Under the pieces are notes generated by a model that was not told the DNA's origin, did not search any database, and saw only the letters and a list, made by a program, of their open reading frames with translations. Shown here piece after piece: positions 9,323 to 47,922 of a stretch of 64,000 nucleotides of DNA. Location: assembly GCA_001662655.1 (NCBI GenBank), contig KV460259.1, one strand, 5' to 3'. The translations under genes were made by a program, and so were the position numbers. The DNA is from Pseudogymnoascus verrucosus (taxonomy: Eukaryota). Each line of letters starts with the position of its first letter. Positions within the stretch are counted from its first letter, which is position 1.

Positions 9323-11508
9323 TCAAGGGACAACGCCGATTTCGTAGCCTATTAATACCTCCGTAGAACTCCCTTCCCACCCTCTGTTTCCAGCAGTAGA
9401 CAGCATATACCTACATGTAGGGTCTATGTGCAGCGCACTAATAACACCTGCCCTTGGGGGCCCAGGAACAATTAGGAACGGAACTGTAGAATGCTTGACC
9501 GCTTCTGTTTGCTTTAAGTCGTACAATCTCAAAATATCATGAGACGCGCTACAATCAATTAGCAACAAAGACCAATCTGATTTGGACAGTGGAGGAGACA
9601 AACCATATCAGATGCCTTCCGTTAGGCATCGCTCTAACAGCGCTAACAGCTCCACTACCAGCGGGAAACTTAAATGTCCTTTCCGGGCCTTTCAGGCCCT
9701 TGTGTAAGCTAAACTCTTCCACTGTCCCGTTTCTCCTTCCTGCATATATATAATTCCCATCTGGACTCCAGCATGCAGCCATGCACCATGGTGGCACACC
9801 TTGTCTGTTCGGGATCTTCGCAACTGGGTTTGGCATTCGTCGGTCCCAAACCCGTAAAGTACCGTCGATGGCAGCAGCCAGGAACGTTGAGTCCGATGTG
9901 GCAACAGCGTCCTGGGTCGATGGCACGGCTTCAGAGTTGCCCGCAGCTTCGACTAGTTCTTCCGCATGTGGCAAACCGTTTGTAAGTTGGCGAGGGCTGG
10001 CAGGTTGCTCTTCTTTTAGCGGTTCTATAGCAAATGACTCCGATTCGACCTCAGCTGGGGGTGGTGGCACTGAGCTTTGGTCTCCAGCTCCCGGTATTGT
10101 CGCGTCTTCCATCGCCGTATCAGCTTGACTGTCAAGCTGATCATGTTGATCCTGCTGGTCAATACCCCCAATGGCCTTGCTAAACTCATCATCGTCGTCT
10201 GCTGCGAAGTTTCCCCCCGACGGCGCACCACCTCCGTCACCATCACCAAATAATGAATCCGTATCGCCAAAGAGTGAGTTCGTCTCAACCGGCGAACCAG
10301 CCGCGTCCCCTTGGCCATCAATGGCAGTGGTAGCTCCATTTGTAACCACGCCATTTGGTATGAAACCGTTTGTAGTGGGCTTATCAGCATTATTGCTAGA
10401 GAATGTTGAACTGAATGCAACAGGCTCGCCAGATTCTTCGGGAACTGGCAGACTGGATGCAGGGCGGATTTCGATTGCTGAAATTTGACCGCCGCTCCCG
10501 GTAAAAGCTCGCCTGGCTTGACCTGTATTCAGGTCCCAGTCCAAGATATTCTTATCCCAACTTCCCGATAGAACAGATTTCTCGTCCGACGAAAGACTTA
10601 GCACCGATACCGCAGACGTGTGCTTCTGGAGGAATGCTATTCTCTTTCCCTCGTCATGCCGTACAGACTGTAGATTAATACACCCCGATTCGAGGCCTGA
10701 TAGTAGCCAGAGAGCTTCTGATTGCACGGCCAGCGAGTATACCGGTGACAATGCTGGTTCGTCGCCTGGTTTCGAGATAGGCTCTTCGTTCTCCCAATAA
10801 CTCATGAGTACGCCGGCCTTTGTCACTGTGTCGACAAACGGGTGGCGCTGTGCGACTGTCAAAAGCGTCTTCCCATTGACAGTGGCAGCCCCATCATATT
10901 TCCGAACGTAGCAGTCAGACCCTCCACTAAACCAATACCGCATATCTGGAGTGGCTGTAATCGCGTTTATCGAGGTGGCTTGTGGGGCTGCCATTGTTGG
11001 GACAATGTCATAGAGAGATGCTGTGAGCGCTTCGGGGCGGATAGACGGGCGTAGTGTTGGTAACGGCGGTATCGATGTCTGCGTCGGAGAACCAGTGGCC
11101 GGGATTTCATTTGACTGCACATGTGAAGTTGGGTCTGTTGCCCCGTTTGTATATAATTGTCCATTGGGTAGGTCGTCTGAGCTCTCGTCTGTATTGGGAA
11201 GGCTGGCTTGTTCCGGCTGAGATTGCAGTAACTTTGGTGATTCTGGGCGTTGGTCTTGCGTCTCTTCTTGATCATCATCATCATTATCGTCGTCATCGTC
11301 CTCGTCTTCCTGATCGCCTAGCGCATCTCCGTCGCCATCTACATCTCCCTCCATGTCGTCAATCGGAGGCGACCCAATATCCTCCATCAATTCATCTTGG
11401 TCGTTATCCGAGCTGGCTCCGGACGCTACAAGAGGTCAGTGTTAAAGCTCTCTGGGGCGCGACCAGGCGCGGTATACCTCTATCATCATCATCCATCGCA
11501 AAGGCCAT
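9323..11508 (-). CDS. SPT8: SAGA complex WD40 subunit Spt8, 3 exons
   Basis: Acidic N-terminus. Motifs LTVAQRHPFVD..KAGVLMSYWEN, SPVYSLAVQSEALWLLSGL, VLSGSWDK, PPWCMAACWS and STAGNRGW match Spt8. Introns near 11428-11476 and 9550-9603. Confidence 0.9.
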
Positions 11509-36040: not shown

Positions 36041-37484
36041 TCAACTGAGCCTGGCCTTCTTTGCGGAACCTTGAGAAAGCTCGGAGCCGTTCTTTACCTT
36101 GGACACTGGCGAGCTTGACAAGGGTGAGCTCCGCGGAACAGAGCCTTTTGGAGCGCCTGGAACCGGCGAGGAAGGGGTTTGAGCCACAAAGAGGGCCCTC
36201 TCGTTGCCTTTCTCGGCCTTTGTCGCCGGACCCGCAGGAACTCGGTGCTGGACGCCGAGGGTTTGGGCCGTGTACCACGGAAGCTCCTCGTCCTTGAACT
36301 CCGTGAACGTCAGATACGGATAATCGTTGGGCAGACGAGAGATATTTGAGCGCGAAATCATGAGCTCAGCAACCACGGCCCTCAGCTCTTCTTTGACGGT
36401 ATTCAACGAGTCTCGAAGACGCTGCTTCCCCTTTGCCGTCATATCAAATTTCTTGTGCCAATCCTCCAGGTCTGCAGCCTTGCAGTAAGATCCGCCACCA
36501 GTGCCAATATCGGTGTAGAACTTGGAACCGCCATCGACCGCAGCATAGCCATGACCTGCCATCGTCTCCTTGACAATATATTGGCGGACAAGTGTGAGAG
36601 CCTGCCAATAGTAGACATCGTTGGCATAAAACGCACGCCCTGGTGTCGCTGCAGCTGGGTCGTTGCTTGGAGGGTGCAGCATGGCCCGAGGGAAAAAAGT
36701 TCGGAGGCGCTCTTCAATCTCCATCTTGCGAACGGTCTGCTCTTGAACCTTCTTGTCCGCAATATCGCAGAGAGTAAGGCCGTTGGCTGTATTCACAAGA
36801 GTCTGCTTATTGATCGCAGACGGGACCTTCCACAGCCCCACGATTCTGATCATGGACTCTCGGAAGATGACGGGCGAGCGAAGGCGGACTCCGATATCAG
36901 CCCAGTATTCGACGTCTCTCAGAACGCGTTTCCAAAGATAGGCGCCGGTGCGGAGGAGGTGCGTCTCAATATCGCGGCGAACGCACGGGACAGCCTTGAG
37001 AGGTTCTGCAGCCTGGAGCAGACGAAGGGAGTCGTTCACCAGTGCTTCGTCACCAGGAAACAGGATCGGATCGATGTTGCACATGCAGCGAAAGAGATTA
37101 TCGTAGATGTGGAGGTAGTCTGTTCCGATTTGGGTATCGACGGCGTTGAAGTTGAAAATGGCCTGTTTGGCCGCTGGGGGAGCCTGGCAACAGTTAGATG
37201 AAGTCGACGGATTTTTGTGAGGAGAAACATACACATACCATGAATTCAAACTCGACGAAGCGGCCCCTCGGATCGGGCCTCATGTGAAAGCGCCACTTGA
37301 TGGTTTTTCCATCCTCGCGTTGCTTCGGAGTGACGTGCGCGGGAGGGTTGATGCCCAGGAGCTCGGAGAATTTTGTGGATGCCGAAGAGAGCATGCTGGA
37401 GTGCAGGTTCCACGTGTCTCCGGTTGGTGCCAGAATGAAGACATCCGCCCCCTGGAAATGAGGGTACTGAGCTGGGTTGAACAT
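36041..37484 (-). CDS. Fungal protein with N-terminal BTB/POZ-like domain, function unknown, 2 coding exons
   Basis: MFNPAQYPHFQGADVFI...WNLHSSMLSSAS; intron about 37184-37238; helical region LRSPVIFRESMIRIVGLW; YPYLTF near the C-terminus. An in-frame stop upstream fixes the ATG at 37484. Confidence 0.7.
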
Positions 37485-39020
37485 CTTGTCAGAGGCCAAG
37501 ACAGGATATCAGGTTGTCCTGAGAACGAAGTCAGTCACTGTTCATATAAAAGGCGAGGTAGGACATGGACCATAAGGATGGAGTCTGAGTGAGATAAAAG
37601 TTGGGGGACTGACCTGAGTGATGATGTTGATGATATGGGTCCAAATAGACCGAGACGGTCGTTCTGAGAAGGCCGGAGGCTGAAGCTGGTCAGATATTTG
37701 AAACTTGGCAACCGAAATCAAAGAATTTGAAAATATGAAGGTGTAATGATGAATGCTGTTGCTGTGTTCTGAGAAGACGGATATGGTTGGATATGAATGA
37801 AGTATGGATAAGAGGGCAGCCCGAGGTCATACAGGTTATATGAAGTTGAGTGCCTGATATTGCCAAAGGGTCGGTGAACTCCAGTTGTAGACTTCTGATC
37901 AACCTGAGGTTCAACTTGAGAACCAATAGTGCATTGAGTGAGCTGTAGGAACTGTGCAGAAGGCCGGGACTGATTCAGATCATGGAAGGATAAATGAGAG
38001 GTAGATGACCAGGTTGGGTTACATGTTTGGAGGAAGAAGATGAGACGACCCAATGGAATAGAAGACTTACCAAGACGGACAAAGTGGGCAGCTTGAAGCT
38101 CTGTATATTAGTTAGTGATGAAATAGGCATTCAGAGATACGAATCTTACCTGAACAATGAGTGGAGGTGAGCCACGATCCAAAGTGTGTACTCGTATCAG
38201 CGAGTTTTGGTGATTGTGCCGAGTTGTGGTTGTGAAGGAAGCGGAAGCCAGAGGAAGTTCACGTCAGTGGTAAATAGCAACCACGACCCACGCTAGCGCC
38301 CCTTAACCAGTTCACTTCTGTTGACGCTGGGCAATAGTTAGTTAAAGTTTGGGCGTTAAGACGGGTTCCTGGGAGCTGAGGCGCTCAACTTCTCGATGTC
38401 AAAAATTGAAACCCCACATACCCCAACATCCAAGACCACACCCACACTTGTAGGAGCCCAAGAACAAAGCAGTGAATACATATAGTCGAGAATGGCGAAC
38501 TTTGAATGAAGCAGATGATTCACAATCTTCTCTCCACCTCATACCTCGGAAAACAACTACGATTTATACATACAAAGAACAGAACATAAACTACCTCGGA
38601 TTGTACCAACGTAGTGGATACCACTATAGGTTCATTCATTCCAGTAACAAGGAGAGAATGTTTTCACAAGAGATGCTCTGAGGTTGTAGGCTTATACTTG
38701 ACTTTGGTGGATTTATTGAACACCTATAATGATGGCGTTGGTATGGAATGTTGAAGAAGTATACATCACAGCATCTGAAGGTAACATGTAGAAAGGTTGA
38801 ATATGATTACTATCTCAGAATTATGAAATAGGCAATAATGAATACTTGAATACATACAACTATGGTATACTATTCATCTCAGATGTGGAGTGGTTATTTT
38901 TGGCAACATCACAAGAAATTTGAAGGCTTCAAGGCCACAGGCCGCAAACTGATGTCATATCCCCTGAATTTTAGACAAGAACGTACAATAATAAAAACAT
39001 AAGGAAATAAAACGATTGGG

Positions 39021-39147
39021 TGCCCTCAGATCAGCTCTCAAGTTCTCACTGCCAACACTTGCTGGTTCTGCTCCTGTTGATACAAGAGCAGGTCAGTAGG
39101 TTGGCCTGCAATTTTGGCTTTTTGGACACATTGGTCATCACCGGGCA
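39021..39147 (-). ncRNA. Candidate box C/D snoRNA, intronic
   Basis: Terminal stem TGCCC/GGGCA, C box GTGATGA, D' CTGA, a 10-bp internal hairpin (CTGCTCTTGT-ATCA-ACAGGAGCAG), C'-like GTGAGAA and D box CTGA. Confidence 0.6.
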
Positions 39148-39840
39148 AAGAAACGCGCATTCCCACCTAACCACCAACAATCTGAGGAAGCATGTCGTGC
39201 TGCGAAATCGAATAATGAAATCTAACGTGCATATCAGTACGAGGAAAGTGGGCACAAAGTTGCTGATTGCAATCATACCAGGTAGCTCCGATTGAAAACT
39301 ATAACGCCTTCATCGGCCTGTCGATCAAGAGATGTGGCCAGAATATCAGCCCCCAACCCCCATTAGAAGCTTACAAACCGACATTGATCCCACTTGGAAC
39401 CACAGGCTCTCAGGACGTTGCAAAATGTCGTCCTTGCCACCCTATTCCCCATCTCAATCGCAGCATCAAACGTGCCCAATCCCAGACTGCGTGGTATGGC
39501 AGGGCAGCACGGCAGCCCAGCTAAGATTTCTGTTCCTAGCTTGCGCATCCCTAATCAACTGTTCACACAGTGACTAGGTAGCATTACGAGGTGAGTTTGT
39601 CGTCACTGCTGGGTTGCTTGGAGAGTATGTTGAAGGAGTAGGAGAGTCGACGTTGGGAATCGCGTGTATATTGAGATAAACGCGACAAACGCACTAGTCC
39701 TGATTTGTAAAATTCAACCGCAGCCTGACGACCTTGGGCCATCTAACGGAAGCTCACGACAACGAACTCTGCATCACCACCACAATAGCGTTTGACCCAG
39801 CTCCTGTTCAATTGTCAGAAGCTGACCTCCAACCGCCATC

Positions 39841-40621
39841 ATGGTAAGTCGGATTGCGATTCCCACTCTCCCAGCACCACTAACGTCCACAGGCGCGCAA
39901 TTCAGAAAAGGCGCAGTCCATGCTCTTCCGCTTCCGCGAAGCCCAAGCCGCAGATCTCGGAATCCTCGATGCAGGCCGCTCGCGGCGCCCGAAGCTAATC
40001 ACCTCCGAAACTTCTATTCCCTCATGCGAGAAGTGGCGTGGACAAGTGCTGAAGGAGATCTCGCGGAAGGTCTCGAAGATCCAAGACCAGGCGCTGAGCG
40101 ACTTCATGATCCGCGACTTGAACGATGAGATCAACAAGGCTATGCGGGAGAAACACATGTGGGAGGTGCAGATTCGGAATCTGGGAGGGCCGAACTACAT
40201 GAGGAGTGCGAAGGTTTATGATGAGGCTGGTCGGGAAATACAAGGTGCTGGGAAGGGGTACAGGTATTTTGGACGAGCAAAGGAGTTACCGGGTGTCAAA
40301 GAGCTCTTTGAGGCGCAGTCGAAGCCGAAAGAAGAAAAGCCGTTGGAGAGTCGTGCGGATCTGAGGAAACAAGTCGATGCGGCGTATTATGGGTACAATC
40401 TGGATGAAGAAGATGGAACATTACTCGATTACGAACTATTCAAGGAGAAGGAGGCGTTTGATAATCTTCTTAAGCAGGGGAATGGAGAGGTTCCAGAAGG
40501 TTGGGAGCCACTTCCCGGGGATAAGGGTGATGGTGAGGGCTGGAGGCTGCCGACACTGGACCAAGTACAAGAGGAACTGGTTGAAAGGAGACGAAAGAGG
40601 TTACTGGACAAGCTGGGATAA
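39841..40621 (+). CDS. ISY1: Pre-mRNA splicing factor Isy1 (NTC component)
   Basis: ATG|intron 39844-39892|ARNSEKAQSMLFRF; motifs IRDLNDEINK, LGGPNY, GYRYFGRAKELPGVKELF and YYGY. Confidence 0.96.
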
Positions 40622-42086
40622 CCTTTGAATGGCCTATGTACAGTATGTGTTGCAGGCAAGGAAAATGTTTTAGTATTTCAGACGGGATTGTAAGCAAATA
40701 TACCACTTCAGAAGAATATACCTGGTCGTGAACAATGTTACTTGGAGAGGGTTAAATTGCCTTTATATTAGGAAACGTTTCCACGTGTAGGAAGGAGTCT
40801 AATCGCCGGTTCTGTCGTTTCAATTGCCCGAAGAACAAGATATAGCTTCGTATGTGGTGCGGTAGCTTGTCTTAGCAAGCATTATGAAGCTTAATTCCCA
40901 CTCACATGGCGTCCAGGGACAAATTGAAGCATTTCGCCATCCCGCCCTCCAATTATACGGCCGCCAATTATATTTCGCCCATACAATAACCCACTTACCG
41001 CGGTCGATCCACAAAATTTCTATCACAATTTTTGTTGATCTGTCACTTATAAAACGACGACGGTCTCGATAACCTGACCCGCTATAAAACATGTCACGAC
41101 GACGCCGGAACATGCAGGTCGCTTGCCCCGGGCCTTGCCCGTGAGATGAGGCCCACGATTGGTCGCGGCGATCCATAACACACGGCTCAAACAAAATCTT
41201 GCTGTGGAGTGACCTGCCGTTCTGCATGCATACTGTATCGGGCTATCTCACCGGCCACTCTCGTCCAACTCATTTCCTTCGGACATCCACAGCACATCCA
41301 CAATCGTCTTGTTTGCATCGCTCCTCAGCGCCGTCCTGGGCGCCATCTGTCACACGCTATCATCCCGAGCTATGCGCACTGTGGCCAGGAATGGGCCATA
41401 CGTCGTCCCATAGGTGTAACGGCCAAGCTCGCTCACATAAAAAACATGGCACGAAATGCCGATCATGATCGCGATTGCTCCAACCAATTCTCGCCAGCTT
41501 TGTGAGTCGTCGCACTGCGTGGCGTTGTGCTATCTGGTCCGCTGGCAGTCTGTGGCGCTGGAGAAAATTAAAACGCTGTCGTGGTCGCTTCTGGCCACGA
41601 AAACGGTGTTTCCTTAGAGACTCCTGGTGACCATAACCGTGACAGCCACACTGACTCGGGTGTTTTTGTTCCCGCTGGTGGAGAGAACTGAGGATGAAAT
41701 AGTTTGTTGATTGGGCATGCGGCATTGCCCCTGTCTAGCTGATATGATATTCTGCATGTTTCGCGATTGTGGCATAGTTATTCTTGTACCACCCGCCTCG
41801 GCCTTGTCCAACTAGCACAAAGGAGGGGTAGTGGTGCTTGTGCCTTACTTGCTAAGTGGGTGCGCTTTGCCAGTAACCTCATCCCGTCATCCCGTCTAAA
41901 CGATAAGATGAGCCTTTGAAAATCACCGGGTCTTCGGCGACCACCAGGGTGACGGGCTGCATGTTCTGGCTACACTATGTCATTTGTCTGCAATCATAAA
42001 GAGATCTAACACTCCTTCCACCGCACAACTATACACCAGTCCGCCCTGGCTCATGCCTGTCGCATCCAGATAGTCAGTTACTCAAT

Positions 42087-45972: not shown

Positions 45973-47922
45973 ATGGGCGCCACAGAGAACATCACCGGTT
46001 CTCCGGTCGACGATGTCATTCGACCTATCGATACAGTTGTCACCGACGACAATGTAAACGTGAATAGTCATGTTGACTCCCACGAAGGCACGAATGGCAA
46101 TGTCAAGGTCAACATCACCAATGGTCACGTGGAAGACCTACCTGTGGACAACACTTCCCTTCTGGTCAAGCTTTCTCAGACCATTGCCCGTGAGACCGAG
46201 AAGGTCGATGCATACTTCCGCGAAAACTCCATCCCCGCTCCTAGCTTTGAGGCCGATGGGCCCTCTGACTATCCCGCTCTTCCCGACGAGATCCAGAAAG
46301 CGAGAATGGCGGTCATCAAAGCGGCTGCGGATCTGAAGGACTTGATGGTTGGACCCAAAGAGTCTGTGAGATGGATGGCCTGGGATGTGAGTCTTCCGTA
46401 GCCTTTGGATTCTCCAAAATGAAGCGTCTCTAATAGCACGCGATAGCATAATAATTCCTTGTCATTAAGGGCTGTGAGCCAGTTCAAGCTCGGTAGGTGC
46501 CAACATCACACAATTGGGAATACAAATTCTGACATAGCACGCAGCAAATGCTTTCCCAGTCGGATCAACGGCAACTTTCGCAGAGCTCGCCAAGGTTGCT
46601 AACGTCGACGAAATGAACACTCGCAGACTCCTCCGCCACGCCATGACAAACCGCATTTTCAAAGAGGTCAGCCCCGGAGTCGTGGCACACACCGCGGCTA
46701 GCAAAACCCTTGCTCAGGACGATCTTCTTCAAGACTGGGTTGGATATTGCGTCCAAGACTTATGGCCTGTGAGTACCAAATTCGTATCCGAACTCTCACC
46801 TGCTAACGTATCCAAGTCCGCCGTTGGAACCCTCGAAGCTTTGACCCGCTTCCCAGGTTCGCAGGAGGATACTCAGACCGGCTTCCAGGTCGCCTTTGAT
46901 CTTGTTGACAAAGAGTCCATGTTCACTGCCTTGGGCAAAGACCCTGCCCGCGGAAGACAGTTCCATCGCGCCATGGGCTCTTTGGCGAATGGTGCTGGCT
47001 ATGAGGTCGAGTACTTCGTCGATAACTATGACTGGAAATCCATCAACGAGAATGCTGGAACCGTTGTCGATGTCGGAGGTAGCCACGGCTTCGTCTCCGT
47101 AGCCATCGCTAAGAAATTCGACAAGATCAAGTTCATCGTCGAGGATCTCCCAAAGGCTCTTGCAACAGCGCCGAAATTTGAAGGCGACCTCGCCGAGAGA
47201 ATTACCTTCAAGGACTATGACTACTTCACCCCTCAGCCCGTAAAGGGAGCGGATGGTATGTCCTGACCCATCCAACCAAGCTGTCGGCGCCAGTAGGCTA
47301 ATTTTTAACCTCTCGCAGTATACTTCTACCGCTGGATTATCCACAACACATCCGACAAGTACGCAATCAAAATCCTGCAATCTCTCGTTCACGGCCTCAA
47401 GAAGGGAGCTCGCATTGTCATCAATGACCACTGCCTCCCCGAGCCAAACACTGAGAACCCGTGGGACGAGAAAATCATCCGGTAAGTAGGCTATGTGGCT
47501 CGTTCGTGGAATATACAACTCCATCTACTCCTCCACCACCTTGAATCTTAAACAGCAAACAATGATGAACATTACTGATGTAGTACAGCACGATGGACCT
47601 GGTCATGCTCACTCTGATCAACGCCCAAGAACGCTCGAAGGAGGAGTTCGAGACGCTCTTCCGTACAGCAAACCCCAACTACCGCTTCCTAGGCGTGACG
47701 CGACCAGCCGGTTGCCGTATGAGCATTGTTGAGGCTGTCTGGGAGGGTGAGGACTATGATGGTGCAGTCGATGCGGAGACGGTCGCAGTTGAGGCCGAAT
47801 CTGAAGCTGCGCGCAGCGCAGAGAAGGCCGAGACTGAAGCTTCATCTGGCAATGTAGAGAACACTATTGAGATTGTTGACGCTCAGGTTGCCAATAACGT
47901 TGAGGCTGTGGCCGCGAATTGA
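45973..47922 (+). CDS. O-methyltransferase (Methyltransf_2, secondary-metabolism type), about 6 exons
   Basis: RRLLRHAMTNRIF.E...VAHTAAS, VVDVGGSHG, YFTPQPVKGAD, RWIIHN..D, MDLVMLTLINAQERS. Confidence 0.92.

Follow-up and report, generated by a model that had tools for sequence, protein, structure and literature searches.

An unannotated candidate box C/D snoRNA without a recognized rRNA target on a spliced minus-strand transcript divergent from ISY1 in Pseudogymnoascus verrucosus

What is carried on the minus strand of the apparently empty region upstream of ISY1, a plus-strand pre-mRNA-splicing factor gene on contig KV460259.1 of Pseudogymnoascus verrucosus? The genus Pseudogymnoascus contains the bat white-nose pathogen. 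In the 64,000-nucleotide (nt) stretch of this contig that we analyzed, hereafter the window, an element at 39147-39021 on the minus strand has the form of a box C/D small nucleolar RNA (snoRNA), and the question is whether it is one, where in its transcript it lies, and what it guides. We consider it likely that the element is a genuine box C/D snoRNA, unannotated, outside the curated families, and with no ribosomal RNA (rRNA) target found. A fuller reading, to which we attach a probability of roughly 0.6, is that this genuine snoRNA lies in retained, probably exonic, sequence of a spliced non-coding minus-strand transcript, that it has a single usable guide, and that it is an orphan, by which we mean that no target was found in the conserved rRNA core of the 110 ribosomal DNA (rDNA) loci described below. 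The support for a snoRNA comes from its canonical boxes, stem, and size, from its being the sole match to the motif in the 64 kb, from its position on the same strand as an intron that is removed from RNA, from its inclusion in the least diverged block of a related transcript, from changes in another relative that spare the boxes, and from the lack of any coding signal.

The initial annotation of this region had described three GT..AG segments and a 127-nt element with boxes, stem, and hairpin, and every one of these motifs lies on the minus strand where it had been placed. The parts of the element, all on the minus strand, are as follows.

39021..39147, minus: box C/D snoRNA candidate, 127 nt, stem to stem
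39143..39147, minus: closing stem, 5' half, TGCCC, pairs with GGGCA at 39025-39021
39142-39141, minus: spacer GG between the closing stem and TGATGA
39135..39141, minus: C box GUGAUGA, with the UGAUGA core at 39140-39135 preceded by G
39134-39097, minus: spacer of 38 nt between the C box and the D'-like CTGA
39096-39093, minus: D'-like box CTGA (CUGA), inside a predicted stem
39051..39105, minus: predicted internal rod, GCCAACCU with AG.GUUGGC, CUG with CAG, and a 10-bp apical hairpin; includes the D'-like CUGA at 39096-39093
39091-39068, minus: apical hairpin, 10 base pairs (bp), top of the internal rod
39043..39048, minus: C'-like box UGAGAA, weak, matching UGAUGA at 4 of 6 positions by eye
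39030..39043, minus: guide upstream of box D, 13-14 nt, ACUUGAGAGCUGAU; 13-nt form CTTGAGAGCTGAT at 39042-39030
39026..39029, minus: D box CUGA, preceded by a U that, by eye, could pair with the final A of GUGAUGA
39021..39025, minus: closing stem, 3' half, GGGCA, pairs with TGCCC at 39147-39143

Three features of the class are present: an RUGAUGA near the 5' end, a CUGA near the 3' end, and a short terminal stem. The closing stem comprises five Watson-Crick pairs, stands 2 nt before the C box, and directly abuts the D box; judged by eye, the textbook kink-turn context is complete, with a purine before UGAUGA, a U before the terminal CUGA, and a stem abutting D. Counting upstream from the D box, the fifth nucleotide is C39034. 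A scan of both strands of the window for TGATGA followed 50-170 nt later by CTGA, with five Watson-Crick closing pairs, returned this element as its only match, where the mean of 200 first-order Markov simulations predicts 0.22 matches per window by chance. When the criteria were relaxed over 38300-39760, the minus strand yielded no second C/D candidate. Elsewhere in the window, two more TGATGA...CTGA pairs with 4-bp stems occur on the minus strand at 46176-46318 and 10051-10191, a class of which about 1.1 are expected per window.

Whether this strand is transcribed and spliced can be judged from assembled contigs of four runs (X1, X4, X21, and X22) aligned to the window, a kind of evidence from which rare forms are dropped by assembly. 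X1 lacks cover over 38200-39039 and 39376-39627 and X22 over 39040-39123, and these gaps were not used as evidence. Run X1 hardly differs from the window, and run X4 represents a relative about 5-10% diverged, in which a single contig of 8654 nt spans the locus. The features on which the argument depends are these.

39841..40621, plus: ISY1, matching Pfam Isy1; a 49-nt GT..AG intron at 39844-39892 directly follows the ATG and is skipped in X4
39222..39278, minus: confirmed 57-nt intron, GTATGA..ACTGAT..TAG, absent from the X1 245-nt and X4 8654-nt contigs
39318..39374, minus: proposed intron 1, GTAAGC..GCTGAT..CAG, a look-alike without support
38964..39166, minus: proposed intron 3, GTGGGA..CTAAA..CAG, with weak sites; it would enclose the snoRNA and was not seen spliced

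The X4 contig is RNA, because the 49-nt ISY1 intron has been removed from it. Another X1 contig (39702-39984) keeps that intron, which leaves two readings of X1, intron-retaining RNA and a mixture. A 245-nt contig of X1 joins 39345-39279 to 39221-39044 and so skips exactly 39222-39278; X4 removes 39220-39278 with two letters between, and the ends of the removed segment, CT..AC on the plus strand, read GT..AG on the minus strand. The same segment is present, with 4 differences in 57 nt, in DNA-like contigs of X21 and X22. With 39278-39222 gone from contigs of two runs, the existence of a spliced minus-strand transcript is established, upstream of plus-strand ISY1 and divergently oriented to it, as the initial annotation had proposed.

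That annotation had envisaged three introns, of which only the middle one, 39278-39222, stands. Proposed intron 1 is kept in X4, and the X1 contig extends 28 nt into it. At position 39373 an A>C difference (plus strand) turns its donor GT (39374-39373) into GG in X4, X21, and X22; as far as the aligned letters go, the donor is specific to this strain. The window strain is the odd one out at 39173 and 39335 as well as at 39373, every relative with cover there agreeing on another letter (39173 in X1, X4, and X21; 39335 in all four runs; 39373 in X4, X21, and X22). Its state at 39373 is what creates the look-alike GT of intron 1.

Proposed intron 3 matters more, for it was held to release the snoRNA. 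According to this rival explanation, the transcript is a three-intron non-coding host from which intron 3 (39166-38964) would free the snoRNA by splicing, debranching, and trimming. Several features suit that role: the segment has GT..AG ends, its CAG is preceded at 8 nt by a CTAAA that resembles a branch site, it has a tract rich in pyrimidines, and both its 203-nt length and its 57 nt from snoRNA to acceptor would be fitting for a snoRNA-bearing intron. An intronic origin is moreover the usual case in Neurospora crassa, in which, according to the available portion of PMC2780460, 45 of 55 box C/D snoRNAs come from introns, in many cases those of non-coding hosts, some of which are UHG-like. 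The transcript shares with hosts of the intron-encoded type its splicing on the snoRNA strand and its lack of a conserved open reading frame (ORF); the enclosing spliced intron was not seen. A minor isoform with intron 3 removed could have been lost in contig assembly. Against these points, both covering RNA contigs, X1 (39044-39221) and X4 (38985-39219), pass through the donor at 39166 without a joint. That donor, GTGGGA, is weak, with neighboring GTs no better, and the stretch that holds the acceptor (38894-38984) is too diverged to align in X4. The snoRNA would begin only 19 nt from the donor, whereas the distances given in the same part of PMC2780460 for N. crassa are mainly 41-60 nt, and intron 1 of the three-intron model is not spliced and has GG for GT in three relatives. 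We therefore regard release from intron 3 as unlikely. The intronic placement of the snoRNA finds no support in the contigs, as the two runs with RNA contigs over the snoRNA segment, X1 and X4, both keep it; on the same strand, the element follows the confirmed intron at a distance of 74 nt, within a stretch still present in assembled RNA, which is the arrangement that our preferred exonic reading describes.

How the element fares in relatives is best seen by dividing the X4 alignment into its pieces, two neighboring segments of which are not alignable.

38985..39219, X4: holds the snoRNA; 10 substitutions and 1 gap letter in 235 nt; the least diverged X4 piece
39279..39842, X4: upstream piece; 27 substitutions and 30 gap letters in 564 nt
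39892..40700, X4: ISY1 coding sequence; 48 substitutions and 2 gap letters in 809 nt
38640..38893, X4: 20 substitutions and 10 gap letters in 254 nt
38448..38564, X4: 20 substitutions in 117 nt
38200..38388, X4: 19 substitutions in 189 nt

The nearly identical run X1 leaves 39044-39147 unchanged. In X21 a contig over 39001-39158 carries five differences, at 39074, 39077, 39079, 39097, and 39101, none of which falls in the C box, the D box, the closing stem, or the D guide. That contig has a depth of 33.4, against 15-21 in its neighbors. Run X21 holds at least two related genomes, one contig set showing 3 and another 35 differences over 39291-39582, and 7 and 66, respectively, over 39958-40621. 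The depth suggests that two X21 genomes, 10-12% apart at 39291-39582 and at ISY1, share the 39001-39158 block unchanged.

The X21 differences are also informative about what lies between the boxes. In the minimum-free-energy fold, two paired segments, GCCAACCU against AG.GUUGGC and CUG against CAG, lie beneath the 10-bp hairpin and complete a rod of 21 pairs over 39105-39051. Three of the five X21 substitutions keep rod pairs (39074, 39077, and 39101, the changes being U·G to U-A, U-A to U·G, and A-U to G·U), the one at 39097 adds a pair, and the one at 39079 lies in a loop; with all of them in place the predicted energy of the rod, -27.5 kcal/mol in the window, becomes -32.8 kcal/mol. Because pairing frequently survives a transition, these changes lend the rod modest support. 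The initial annotation had named a second guide upstream of the D' box, and both the fold and the X21 substitutions tell against it: the "D' guide" is probably one arm of the internal rod, a reading that would explain why position 5 of the supposed guide is changeable. A rod of this predicted kind fits a single-guide RNA with a structured internal domain.

If the element guides anything, then, it would do so with the 13-14 nt upstream of box D, and we asked of both this guide and the D' stretch whether they complement rRNA, the only class of target tested. The sample consisted of 110 rDNA loci from metagenome contigs, of unknown taxa, fetched and oriented by the ITS4 primer; 7 of the 110 have both 18S primer sites, 21 reach +2000 in 25S, 4-5 reach beyond +2500, and two more carry the 25S 3' end of the preceding repeat unit. 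On the sense strand of these loci we found no conserved rRNA complement for the D guide or the D' stretch. The D guide reaches at best 10 Watson-Crick pairs, a length attained in only 2 of 110 loci, and for the D' stretch the best match is a 12-nt perfect complement in one locus of 110 (L047), located in the variable expansion segment ES27. Shuffled guides (n = 40) do as well, 31 of 40 reaching 10 for D and 4 of 40 reaching 12 for D', and three N. crassa guides used as positive controls found their conserved sites in 4, 7, and 6 loci. The statement in the initial annotation that neither guide has a recognized rRNA target thus holds up, the best matches being within the shuffled range and the controls being found.

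Individual candidates were rejected one at a time. The complement in L047 (at about +1918 from the ITS4 site, in an unidentified eukaryote) lies in the variable ES27 and is absent from the 13 other loci that cover the position. In locus L008 the D guide finds a complement of 11 positions, 10 Watson-Crick pairs plus one G·U, at a site where the usual 25S would be mismatched at guide position 5. Recurrent weaker matches, one in 5.8S of 10 pairs including three G·U and one in 25S near +1874 of 9 pairs including two G·U, were judged too weak. An alternative D box, the first CUGA of GCUGAUCUGA, gives a 15-pair match in 7 of 110 loci, which falls on the 25S antisense strand and so reflects a sense-to-sense likeness, with no guide-target pair. 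The stretch from C' into the guide, 39036-39050 on the minus strand (AGTGAGAACTTGA), is closely similar to 25S itself, on its sense strand, at a conserved place some 1.4 kb into the large-subunit rRNA. A scan for a two-part 18S complement, with 8- and 9-mers in at least 6 loci, found nothing coherent; within the 64-kb window there are no complements of at least 12 nt; and an ITS4 primer scan of viral contigs gave 0 matches.

Several of the results weigh against our preferred reading, and they are best set beside the rival that they favor, namely, that there is no snoRNA and that a chance C/D-like motif lies in a conserved non-coding exon or in the promoter-proximal region of a long non-coding RNA. 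At least one match to the motif occurs in 19% of the 200 simulated windows, so the bare motif is suggestive, not decisive, and the case depends on context. Rfam, which includes some of the Aspergillus fumigatus (Afu) families, returned 0 matches for the whole window at gathering thresholds and 0 matches at E<=10 for a 3.5-kb piece. When searched with 191 nt it gave only sub-threshold matches, the best being SNORD89 (14 bits, E 3.1, gathering score 41), and three of the five belonged to generic C/D families on the minus strand. This was a check that the initial annotation had proposed. The absence of a conserved rRNA complement counts on the same side, as does the internal C'/D' pair, whose CUGA (39096-39093) lies in a predicted stem and whose UGAGAA is weak at 4 of 6 positions; the predicted rod engulfs the "D' guide" and the D'-like CUGA alike.

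The conservation evidence has its own weak points: it comes from close relatives only. In X4 substitutions are about as infrequent in the neighboring piece 39279-39842 (27/564), so that the element is not alone in being conserved, and only 1 of the 10 X4 substitutions in 38985-39219 could be placed among the differences listed, so that the other 9 may fall inside the element. The divergence of the element in X21, 5/127, is not below that of the flanking contigs (19/831 and 5/190). Boxes and guide had been expected to be conserved while the exons drift; the boxes, the stem, and the D guide are indeed intact in X21, and it is the contrast with the flanks that fails to appear in that run. Finally, assembled contigs reveal neither the 5' and 3' ends of the RNA nor its abundance, and they show no stable species of about 127 nt.

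What argues against a chance motif is the conjunction of particulars. The element sits on the transcribed strand and inside the least diverged X4 block; all five X21 substitutions spare the boxes, the stem, and the D guide, three of them keeping pairs and a fourth adding one; and its kink-turn detail is complete down to the R before UGAUGA, the U before CUGA, and the stem abutting D. On this balance we hold a chance motif to be distinctly improbable and a genuine box C/D snoRNA to be the better account.

Could the transcript instead encode a small protein? An ORF of about 100 aa (100 amino acids) beginning at the ATG at 39548 is open only on removal of all three proposed introns; if just the confirmed one is taken out, the frame closes after 61 aa. 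The initial annotation had left a small protein of about 100 aa open, and while its frame does stay open with three introns out, two of those introns were not seen spliced. In X4 there are +1 insertions at 39301, within proposed exon 2, and at 39157 and 38764. The 61-aa ORF matches no Pfam family, and no homologue of it was found among 5.8 billion clustered proteins, of which only those of 33-107 aa were considered. With frameshifting indels in X4, no Pfam match, and no homologue, the carrier is, as proposed at the outset, non-coding as far as can be tested, and a small protein of either length is very unlikely.

A further alternative accepts the snoRNA and changes its carrier, making the minus-strand transcript a long, multi-intron 5' leader of the protein gene that lies downstream on the same strand. 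The features concerned are the following.

37484-37194 and 37084-36041, minus: ORFs of the downstream protein gene, with an ATG at 37484
38389..38447, minus: possible further intron, or a 57-nt deletion in the relative; skipped in X4 only
38716-38711: AATAAA, in an A+T-rich tract at 38900-38700, downstream of the snoRNA element

No Pfam family was found for the downstream ORFs (36041-37484). Upstream of the ATG at 37484, within 37520-38149, intron-like minus-strand segments can be seen, GTAAGA..ACTAAC..CAG at 38149-38101 and a GTAAGT from 38070, and a further segment, GTCAGT..CAG, lies at about 37613-37520. Read by eye, these suggest that the downstream gene has a 5' leader of some length, interrupted by several introns. 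The X4 RNA contig is unbroken from 38200 to beyond 39842 and skips 38447-38389, a segment whose ends, CT..AC on the plus strand, again read GT..AG on the minus strand with two letters between. The donor of that segment, GTGTGG, is weak, and the skip, which may be a deletion, is confined to a single diverged relative. The X4 contig spans several genes on both strands and so proves no single transcript, and the AATAAA with its A+T-rich tract could end a separate one; judged from X4, the carrier may either stop near 38716-38711 or run on as a 5' leader of the downstream gene. We hold the leader doubtful and continue to favor a separate non-coding carrier.

On the other side of the divergent arrangement, ISY1 matches Pfam Isy1 in a profile search with an E value of 3.7e-82, and its ORF shares 99% identity with a protein cluster that bears the name pre-mRNA-splicing factor ISY1, from Pseudogymnoascus sp. 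Upstream of the minus-strand transcript region, an AGTCAC at 39570-39575 (minus) equals the invariant core of the Homol-D box, a lone 6-mer that could easily occur by chance; the Homol-D box, according to the part of PMC4138321 available, drives snoRNA and ribosomal-protein promoters in fission yeasts. No tRNA genes were found in the 64-kb window.

Taken as an exonic orphan, the element would work as follows. GUGAUGA and CUGA, held together by the 5-bp stem, would form a kink-turn that binds Snu13, Nop56, Nop58, and the methyltransferase Nop1/fibrillarin, and the mature RNA would be trimmed from its non-coding precursor up to the ends that these proteins protect. That precursor would be an exon or a 3' tail or, less likely, a weak and inefficiently spliced intron. 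Only one guide would be usable, namely the 13-14 nt that precede box D; it would direct 2'-O-methylation of a G paired with C39034, and the supposed D' guide stretch would serve instead as one arm of the internal rod. A more speculative view, which we advance only tentatively and think unlikely, is that this is a genus-restricted exonic box C/D RNA whose guide acts outside rRNA, for example on a spliceosomal small nuclear RNA, a tRNA, or an mRNA, or which is a non-modifying chaperone, with the rod as a lineage-specific protein- or RNA-binding domain; the release of such an exonic snoRNA would destroy its carrier.

Fungal genome annotations rarely include snoRNAs, and this locus contributes a probable box C/D RNA that falls in no curated family, together with the spliced non-coding transcript that carries it. 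If the RNA does have a non-rRNA target, or is released from an exon, it would be a useful case for the origin and processing of orphan snoRNAs in filamentous fungi. Its novelty was also sought in sequence and print: no guide 8- to 9-mers are common to the element and 55 published N. crassa box C/D sequences; the matches listed for guide fragments in the full text of the literature were all unrelated by title; and among the matches listed for Pseudogymnoascus together with snoRNA, none by title concerns fungal snoRNAs.

The element also bears comparison with known systems. Yeast snR4 and snR45, which guide 18S acetylation, are likewise box C/D RNAs without a canonical methylation target; unlike them, the element has no Rfam match to any snR family and no coherent two-part 18S complement. 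Accessible parts of PMC5824354 count 68 box C/D families in fungi, nine Pezizomycotina-specific and six orphan, and report the snR4 family in some Pezizomycotina. The sections of PMC2377427 at hand list ten box C/D candidates without a target in A. fumigatus, orphans such as Afu-40 and Afu-514, and those of PMC2780460 describe as orphans N. crassa CD53 and CD55, the latter 137 nt long, with CD54 at 125 nt. As far as these partial sources describe them, such orphans resemble our element in their canonical C and D boxes, in having no rRNA complement found, to which the published orphans add the lack of one in small nuclear RNA, in their similar size, and in their intergenic or non-coding setting. 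From the A. fumigatus orphans it is set apart only by the lack of an Rfam match, and the family tables of PMC5824354 could still hold it. The UHG-like hosts of N. crassa, as the same portion of PMC2780460 presents them, are also spliced transcripts with only short ORFs and box C/D snoRNAs aboard, and in them the snoRNAs are clustered, each in an intron of its own between canonical splice sites; here, unlike in those hosts, a single snoRNA stands behind a 57-nt intron too short to hold one, with no canonical intron enclosing it. For that placement the closest counterpart is N. crassa CD6 of cluster III, which that portion of PMC2780460 gives as exon-encoded, as our element possibly is within its own host. 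Orphan and non-coding-hosted box C/D snoRNAs have thus been described already in Neurospora and Aspergillus, exon-encoded snoRNAs too are on record in filamentous ascomycetes, and what we propose at this locus is an ordinary kind of gene.

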